This document shows, piece by piece, positions 16,999-17,211 of a stretch of DNA of 31,542 nt. A model generated the notes under the pieces. That model saw nothing but the letters and a program-made list of their open reading frames with translations, was not told the DNA's origin and ran no database searches. The DNA comes from a virus (lineage: Duplodnaviria; Heunggongvirae; Uroviricota; Caudoviricetes): positions 1 to 31,542 of the IMG/VR virus record IMGVR_UViG_2711768060_000013; one strand, given 5' to 3'. The position numbers and the translations under genes are program-made. The stretch's first letter is position 1. Every line of letters begins with the position of its first letter.

Positions 16999-17046
16999 GT
17001 CAGTCTCCGTCGTTTGGGGTTACCGACGGTCAGTATGCGGAAGGCA

Positions 17047-17072
17047 GAAAAAAAGCCGGATTTACCGGCTTC
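17047..17072 (-). terminator. intrinsic-terminator-like element downstream of F (minus strand reads AAGCCGG-TAAAT-CCGGCTT followed by T7); may alternatively be an activator site for the I promoter
   Basis: hairpin plus T-run read directly; identical copy at 24823-24848. Confidence 0.55.
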
Positions 17073-17211
17073 ACTGAAAACGGGAAAATACCCCCTTCAA
17101 AACCCCTTCAAAAACGCCACAGCATCTTCAAAAACGTCAGAATGCACATTCACGCCATCAGAATAAAAAACGCGTTTCTGATGCGTTTCAGGGGGATTTA
17201 CGGCGGGAGGG

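Follow-up and report, generated by a model that had tools for sequence, protein, structure and literature searches.

In phage Mu, the genes of this region are arranged in the order H-F-G-I-(Z)-T (NC_000929), with G between F and I. In the DNA analysed here (31,542 nucleotides, referred to throughout as the window), F and I are separated only by a short non-coding gap, and the question raised by this locus is what has become of G and what the intervening DNA might do. The window comprises most of a Mu-like transposable E. coli prophage, all of whose genes are on the minus strand. Read from right to left, these include transposase A, B, Gam, GemA, a Mor-family activator, endolysin, terminase, portal, F, I and T; leftward of T lie a gp36-like gene and genes for a Phage_tail_S protein, the sheath and the tail. 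An earlier note had given the Mu gene order correctly and had proposed that the gap may be a deletion scar or a late promoter region; the gap that it placed between F and I was found, although its size is 213 rather than the claimed 212 bp. The gap and its borders are as follows.

17212-18033, minus strand: gene F, upstream border of the gap, a 273-aa ORF for a Mu F-like head morphogenesis protein (Pfam Phage_Mu_F, 1.1e-15)
16999-17211: the F-I gap, non-coding
16036-16998, minus strand: gene I, protease/scaffold, first gene of the downstream operon (Pfam Mu-like_Pro, 9.8e-45)

The window F protein is 35% identical to Mu gp30. We found the prophage in 49 of 5,426 complete E. coli genomes (~1%), with 93-99.6% identity in the gap region, and PGAP annotation of those genomes placed nothing between F and I. 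As we describe below, the gap is probably this lineage's counterpart of the central, G-I intergenic control region of Mu, pairing a strong DNA-gyrase site with an adjacent, activator-dependent promoter for the head genes. The Mu elements used for comparison (the strong gyrase site or SGS, Pm and P_I) are all well known; the gap belongs to the same kinds but to another Mu-like lineage, in which they are uncharacterised.

With regard to the apparent absence of G, the claim that no ORF of at least 60 aa lies within the gap was borne out by an ORF check, and no ORF of at least 20 aa on either strand lies fully within it. Only three ORFs of at least 20 aa reach into the gap: one of 57 aa, out of frame, that overlaps the F end, and two on the plus strand, of 41 aa (overlapping I) and 74 aa (overlapping F). 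A tblastn search with Mu G as the query gave no match in the gap, and a small ORF or G remnant at this place was rejected on these 2 results. G has not been deleted, and a G-like gene is located elsewhere in the window; the earlier description of this gene as Phage_tail_S-like is confirmed by Pfam.

13762-14307, minus strand: G-like virion morphogenesis gene, relocated to follow the gp36-like gene (Phage_tail_S, 4.6e-15; 24% identical to Mu G, E 7e-6)

The G-like gene occupies the same place, after gp36, in Vibrio phage 1.156.O and in the ETEC1703 prophage. We observed the order F-gap-I, with the G-like gene after gp36, in relatives that share no more than 58-69% identity with the window in their F or I proteins, namely Klebsiella phage Kp4866-3, a Brenneria salicis prophage (the one locus recovered by a contig scan of genomes for relatives), ten IMG/VR contigs (I protein ~60% identical) and Vibrio phage 1.156.O. 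In all of them F is short and is separated by 200-310 bp from I, which is followed by T; further on come a gp36-like gene and then the G-like gene. Because the arrangement is common to the Klebsiella, Brenneria, IMG/VR and Vibrio relatives, it is ancestral to a sub-lineage of Mu-like phages.

These observations bear directly on the alternative that the gap is the scar of a G deletion, or that it hides a short G-like gene, some other small gene or an sRNA, which we consider most improbable. Mu does have G at this place, folding of the gap RNA is modestly better than that of its shuffles (z = -2.6), and a weak, sub-threshold Rfam match to sroD (22 bits vs a cutoff of 50, E 0.047) extends over 17047-17135. 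Yet F-gap-I is kept across genera that have the G-like gene elsewhere, the ORF and tblastn searches were blank for the gap, and close relatives differ from each other there by indels of 1-2 bp; nor did the gap contain an Rfam match at gathering score or a promoter-like site for an sRNA. The sroD match, and an even lower match to BLV_package (15 vs 70 bits, E 0.82), were put down to chance or to the terminator hairpin described below. A deletion scar is therefore not supported: the gap resembles the G-I intergenic elements of Mu, not G coding sequence, and the apparent "missing gene" is explained as the normal gene order of one Mu-like sub-lineage.

We turn now to the contents of the gap as a control region. 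All the repeats and motifs that had been listed for it were found there, each of the type described.

17095-17103, 17106-17115 and 17126-17135: direct repeats CTTCAAAA(A)C
17137 and 17158: TCAGAAT
17172 and 17183: GCGTTTC
17168-17177: palindrome AAACGCGTTT
17048-17072: dyad/A7 element, called the box below

From the sequence, a function can be proposed for every one of these motifs. The direct repeats, read on the minus strand as GTTTTTGAAG, are the most conspicuous. Allowing at most one mismatch, GTTTTTGAAG occurs 7 times in the window vs 2.3 expected (none of 100 shuffles reached 7), and 3 of the 7 copies are packed into 41 bp within the gap. Their counterparts in Mu are the phased bending signals of the SGS right arm, a correspondence that the earlier note had missed. 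The SGS is central in the Mu genome and needed for efficient replicative transposition, and the phased bending signals of its right arm wrap the GyrA C-terminal domain (PMC10052514, PMC6379681, PMC13284261); the right arm is the essential determinant of the site (PMC10052514, PMC13284261). The corresponding segment of the window is as follows.

17075-17135, minus strand: homologue of the SGS right arm, with three GTTTTTGAAG repeats (17135-17126, 17115-17106 and 17104-17095)
17090-17085 and 17080-17077, minus strand: right-arm T tracts following the repeats, TATTTT and TTTT

Together these give five T/A tracts spaced ~10-12 bp (or 20 bp) apart over 17135-17077, as in a phased bending signal. 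Homology to the SGS was examined with an nhmmer profile built only from gaps of the window lineage (E. coli, Klebsiella, Brenneria and IMG/VR), from which Mu and TUM9757 were left out. Against both strands of the whole Mu genome, this profile gave a sole significant match, at 17883-17938 on the plus strand (E 1.9e-6; the next match was at 0.039). The match adjoins the "gyrase cut site" feature that the Mu record places at 17879/80, inside the G-I gap, which is the SGS. The alignments pair the three GTTTTTGAAG units of the window with Mu TTTTTTAAAA, ATTTTTAAA and TATTTAA, just to the right of the cut. Pairwise BLAST of the window repeats against Mu itself was not significant, and the link needs either the profile or TUM9757 as an intermediate.

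The intermediate came from a search of the gap against E. coli genomes, in which 46 bp carrying the three repeats (17089-17134) were 95.7% identical to an unannotated spot in three other genomes. The spot falls between G and I in a Mu-type prophage that has F, G and I, present in E. coli TUM9757, SE11 and PEC422. The I proteins encoded beside the shared 46 bp are only 26% identical between the window and the Mu-type prophage. As an observation in its own right, such an island (window 17089-17134; L003 4001-4046) shared by 2 Mu-like lineages of E. coli points either to exchange of a gyrase-site arm or to very strong constraint on it.

Kp4866-3, Brenneria and the relatives L026-L034 retain the repeats. 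The three units, phased 20-21 and 11 bp apart, recur in Kp4866-3, in Brenneria and in ten contigs from IMG/VR, all of which encode I or F proteins with 60-69% identity to those of the window. Across lineages the unit itself drifts (TTTGAAG, TTTGAAC, TTTAAAC and TTTAAAA) with the phasing of T tract and AA retained, and such drift at constant phasing is what would be expected of a DNA-shape signal. Matches of the lineage profile in Sp18 (E 0.9) and in Vibrio phage 1.156.O were not significant, and the resemblance there is at the level of pattern only. Homology to the SGS does not guarantee strength, because most of the central sites taken from other Mu-like prophages could not stand in for the Mu SGS (PMC10052514).

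To the F-proximal side of the repeats, the remaining parts of the putative gyrase site were placed as follows.

17141-17148, minus strand: putative gyrase cleavage core, placed to within a few bp by its register with the Mu cut at 17879/80 in the alignments and in nhmmer
17150-17211, minus strand: F-proximal part of the gap, putative left arm, with GAAACGC twice at 11-bp spacing, a T6 run and the AAACGCGTTT palindrome

The cut position extrapolated from Mu is 17145-17148. This agrees with the peak, at 17141-17144, of a two-arm score of our own, which measures periodic arms 20-63 bp to either side of a centre, the geometry of the 130-bp gyrase motif (PMC6379681). The peak ranks first of 31,414 positions in the window, and the same site ranks first in the whole ETEC1703 prophage; the score is not validated as a predictor, and the asymmetric SGS of Mu itself ranks only ~600 of 36,589. 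The arms flanking the putative core have an AT/GC periodicity of ~10.5-11 bp. In a scan for 10-11-bp periodicity with 44-bp windows, 17075-17118 was the third strongest, just as the Mu right arm (17909-17952) is third in Mu, and 17165-17208 on the other side was among the 8 most periodic of the 31.5-kb window. A correlation of the W/S pattern with the 133-bp gyrase consensus (PMC6379681) performed poorly on its control (the Mu SGS ranked 28) and ranked the gap 51, with the best centre off target; it was not used as evidence.

The putative left arm contains an 8-bp inverted repeat, CATCAGAA/TTCTGATG, and varies at 14 of 62 positions among 17 relatives. The putative cleavage core is not conserved with Mu. 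In close relatives the segment 17136-17149 is hypervariable, with three haplotypes and differences at 8 of 14 positions, as compared with 26-27% at third codon positions (p ~0.015, uncorrected for multiple looks); the repeats and box that flank it are conserved. Just past the F stop, at 17201-17191 on the minus strand, we also observed GCCGTAAATCC, which is like the core of the box minus one base; at the same place Kp4866-3 has a perfect hairpin, GAGGCGG-TAAT-CCGCCTC (L001 ~3707-3724).

In its location, intergenic upstream of I and near the centre of a transposable phage, the site also conforms to the SGS. In the prophage of E. coli strain ETEC1703 (99% identical, 35,259 bp), its distance from the left end is 15.9 kb, which puts it at 45.2% of the prophage and 1.7 kb off the exact centre, as compared with 48.7% for the Mu site. 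This prophage has Mu-type termini, TGTATTGATTCAC... and ...GCCGCTTCA, which are nearly identical to Mu attL/attR, and a 5-bp target duplication, CTCTT. Its bounds are NZ_CP122923.1 2610374-2645632 (L037 575-35833), between hglS and ydcI, and it carries com/mom.

It is conceivable, if unlikely, that gyrase is not what binds the T5GAAG repeats (they might be sites for a DNA-binding protein of phage or host, a far-upstream promoter element or iterons), and that their likeness to the SGS reflects shared ancestry of a spacer. Like many protein-binding arrays, the repeats are short, direct and phased; they end ~47 bp upstream of the Mor element described below; TGAAG is common to the repeats and the left edge of the box, and TGAAGGGGGTATTTCC is 4 mismatches away from the box; and the controls for the gyrase motif are weak. 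Against this, the unit sequence drifts with its phasing kept, whereas the TGAAG of the box is constant in the same lineages, which fits a DNA-shape signal better than recognition of specific bases. Moreover, the sole significant Mu counterpart of the repeats is the experimentally defined right arm of the SGS, and their position, -71 to -111 relative to the predicted start, is past the usual range of UP elements. We retain the gyrase-site reading. By analogy with Mu, the right arm would be wrapped by host gyrase around a GyrA C-terminal domain, and the processive supercoiling that gyrase then drives from mid-prophage would help the 2 prophage ends to synapse for replicative transposition.

The suggestion of a late promoter region, also made earlier, fared better than that of a scar: the dyad/T7 together with a downstream CATACT aligns ungapped with the mapped Mu promoter P_I and is a near copy of Pm, the Mor-dependent middle promoter of Mu. 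The components, and the activator gene to which they point, are as follows.

17060-17075, minus strand: Mor-type activator element AGTGAAGCCGGTAAAT, an imperfect dyad with predicted centre near -43.5
17032-17037, minus strand: -10 sequence CATACT, predicted start ~17024, no -35 (placed by the Pm register; aligns with CAAACT of Mu P_I)
17007-17029, minus strand: inverted repeat CCGTCG-N11-CGACGG over the predicted start, overlapping the GGAG Shine-Dalgarno sequence of I (-9.7 kcal/mol)
24853-25302, minus strand: the only Mor/C-family activator gene in the window (Pfam Mor, 8.8e-30; 62% identical to Mu Mor, 32% to Mu C)

A blastn search of the gap against the whole Mu genome gave a sole significant match, 29 bp at 93% identity (Mu 9172-9200, E 1.5e-6), which is Pm, right after mor. 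Footprints place the Mor dyad at -51 to -36 of Pm, and KMnO4-reactive positions fix +1 at Mu 9224 (PMC4287176). In the register so fixed, the Mu Mor site is AGTAAAGCCGGTTAAT (Mu 9173-9188), with which AGTGAAGCCGGTAAAT agrees at 14 of 16 positions, and the Mu -10 is TATCCT; CATACT in the window lies 25 bp from the hairpin centre, as does TATCCT in Pm. Mu P_I, which is C-dependent and mapped, was reconstructed from a 92-mer in PMC4461284, and the region of the window from the box to the -10 aligned to it without gaps. The pattern A-ACTG was invariant across 9 aligned sequences. A scan of the gap for sigma-70 -35/-10 promoters returned 0 sites, as expected for an activator-dependent promoter.

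The window element thus has a 16-bp dyad overlapping the -35 region, a -10 with no -35, and a phage-encoded Mor-family activator, as Mor-dependent promoters do. It does not conform to a C-dependent late promoter, i.e. P_I proper: the sole activator is far closer to Mor than to C, and the site is Pm-like. The element would therefore work like P_I without being a C-dependent promoter. A dimer of the single Mor-type activator of the phage would bind AGTGAAGCCGGTAAAT (17075-17060) and recruit sigma-70 RNA polymerase to the -35-less promoter, with transcription of the I-T head operon starting near 17024.

An inverted repeat is found at the same spot in Mu, TUM9757, Kp4866-3, Brenneria and L026, with arms of different sequence (CTGCTCA/TGAGCAG in Mu, TCCGG/CCGGA in L026 and TCCGT/ACGGA in Brenneria). 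Possibly, it might restrict translation of I to transcripts that start at the promoter. There was one observation for which we offer no explanation and which counts against the model: the predicted start falls within the 5' arm of this inverted repeat.

The activator element shares its DNA with the box, of which there is a second copy in the window.

17048-17072, minus strand: 25-bp box GAAGCCGGTAAATCCGGCTTTTTTT, an 8-bp hairpin followed by T7, overlapping the activator site and promoter spacer (terminator scan)
24823-24847, minus strand: second exact copy of the box, upstream of the GH108 endolysin gene and 5 nt past the Mor-family stop, with -10 CACCAT in the same register

The description of this element as "terminator-like" was apt. 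Its RNA has the anatomy of an intrinsic terminator (8-bp stem, 5-nt loop and U7; -12.6 kcal/mol, z = -3.0), and it probably also terminates incoming transcripts; the same DNA, however, would above all be an activator-binding site. The box occurs in exactly two copies in the window (0 expected). The arrangement of a Mor-family gene followed by a box is the same as that of mor and Pm in Mu, and two copies in the same 2 places are present in Brenneria and in L026-L033. By tblastn of Mor and C, only 24853-25302 matched in the window, with no second copy, and the protein encoded there presumably binds both boxes. Our search found no further copies of the box that might serve as P_P-like or P_mom-like promoters. 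Upstream of com/mom (L037 34820-34880) there is no Pm-type box, and GATTAAATACCCCC at that place resembles a C-type site even though no C gene is present.

We considered whether the dyad/T7 might be only the intrinsic terminator of the F operon, with I expressed by read-through or from another promoter. Its canonical anatomy and the location of both copies at the end of an operon speak for this, but we regard it as very unlikely. Against it stand the 14 of 16 bases shared with the Mor footprint in Mu Pm, a -10 in the same register and the ungapped alignment with mapped P_I; a strong terminator without a promoter, 50 bp before essential head genes, would also block their expression. Furthermore, in L026-L034 the copy upstream of I is without the T run and the right half of its hairpin, yet retains the left half of the box, with its activator half-site, and the -10. 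Because of this loss, termination at I is not conserved, and the promoter role is the conserved one. Among 17 distinct close relatives, only 1 of the 32 positions in 17048-17079 varies, vs 26-27% of third codon positions (p = 0.0007). The box would thus be primarily part of a Mor-type promoter; when transcribed from upstream, it would in addition form the 8-bp hairpin and U7, ending the lysis-terminase-portal-F transcript just before the new start, and the identical box would do the same job after the mor-like gene, ahead of the endolysin gene.

The window has no C gene and no middle operon; in the stretch covering 24853-25302 and 24767-24852, the endolysin gene directly follows the Mor-family gene. 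With a single Mor-type activator, no C and no middle operon, a two-tier cascade from early to late, using Pm-type boxes, is implied. This would be a simplified Mu cascade, in which the Pm-type box is reused at the head operon.

In its overall order, the proposed control region would read on the minus strand, 5' to 3', as the F stop, a periodic left arm, the putative gyrase core, a periodic right arm with the three repeats, a Mor site overlapping the terminator hairpin, the -10 and start, the inverted repeat over the Shine-Dalgarno sequence and then gene I. Of this picture, the homologies, the copy number of the box, the conservation and the central location are observed in the sequences, and gyrase cleavage, Mor dependence, the transcription start and termination are inferred from them. 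Several features distinguish this region from Mu: G is absent between F and I, a Pm-type box takes the place of a C-type site, both arms are periodic and the distance from arm to promoter is shorter.

Like the Mu SGS, the putative site of the window is directly upstream of I, near the genome centre and followed by the I-operon promoter, and the three phased T-tract/AA units of its right arm agree with those of Mu in order and spacing. It differs from the SGS in that its upstream neighbour is F rather than G; sequence similarity to Mu is absent from the core and left arm; periodicity is found in both arms and not mainly in the right arm; the arm-to-promoter distance is ~25 bp shorter; and the site is at 45% of the genome as opposed to 49%.

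The promoter resembles Mu Pm in its 29-bp match, the spacing from dyad to -10, the lack of a -35 and the cognate activator, a copy of the box being located 5 nt past the mor-like stop. In contrast to Pm, which Mu uses once, for the C-encoding middle operon, the window element is used twice, for the lysis and head genes directly; also, the loop is TAAAT in the window and TTAAT in Mu. The hairpin and T7 that overlap Mu Pm, right after mor, we take to be the early terminator t9.2 (Howe laboratory). With P_I of Mu, the window element has in common its position upstream of I, a similar -10/discriminator (CCGCATACTGAC vs CCGCAAACTGAC) and an inverted repeat past the -10. It differs from P_I in having a Mor-type site where Mu has the C-type CATAACCCC; there is no C orthologue, and Mu P_I is without a hairpin or T run.

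The central site of Sp18, from E. coli O157:H7 Sakai, was the only heterologous site that promoted Mu replication (PMC10052514). Sp18 is, like the window, a Mu-like E. coli prophage, and the intergenic DNA before its I gene likewise holds phased tracts of TTTAA type; unlike the window, it retains G between F and I, and its gap is not matched significantly by the lineage profile.

If our reading is correct, the Mu SGS, the best-studied natural gyrase substrate, is extended to a distinct prophage lineage that includes Klebsiella and Brenneria members, and the natural variants, in which phasing is kept and sequence is changed, are material with which to test what makes a gyrase site "strong". A more elaborate possibility, which we consider distinctly unlikely, is that the gap is a hub coupling DNA topology to transcription. 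The two-armed gyrase site would abut, without any spacer, a bifunctional terminator/Mor site, central supercoiling would directly tune firing of the head promoter, the core would be under diversifying selection that sets gyrase strength, and the inverted repeat would let only promoter-initiated I, and not read-through transcripts, be translated. Such selection, if it acts, would explain the presence of a hypervariable core between conserved flanks.

Two further intervals among the morphogenesis genes deserve mention. The 78-bp gap following the major head gene T (15053-15130, minus strand) contains a hairpin with a 10-bp stem, AGTTAAAAGG...CCTTTTAACT, and an 18-bp perfect palindrome, CTGCCTTTTAAAAGGCAG, and is among the most 10-11-bp-periodic stretches of the window. 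In the Mu-like Shewanella phage vB_SspS_MuM16-1 (L036 6672-9945), the G-I interval is enlarged by ~3.3 kb of cargo, comprising a reverse-strand gene, a transcriptional regulator and an RNA-directed DNA polymerase, and the lineage profile gives a marginal match there, at 7654-7688 (E 0.002-0.006).
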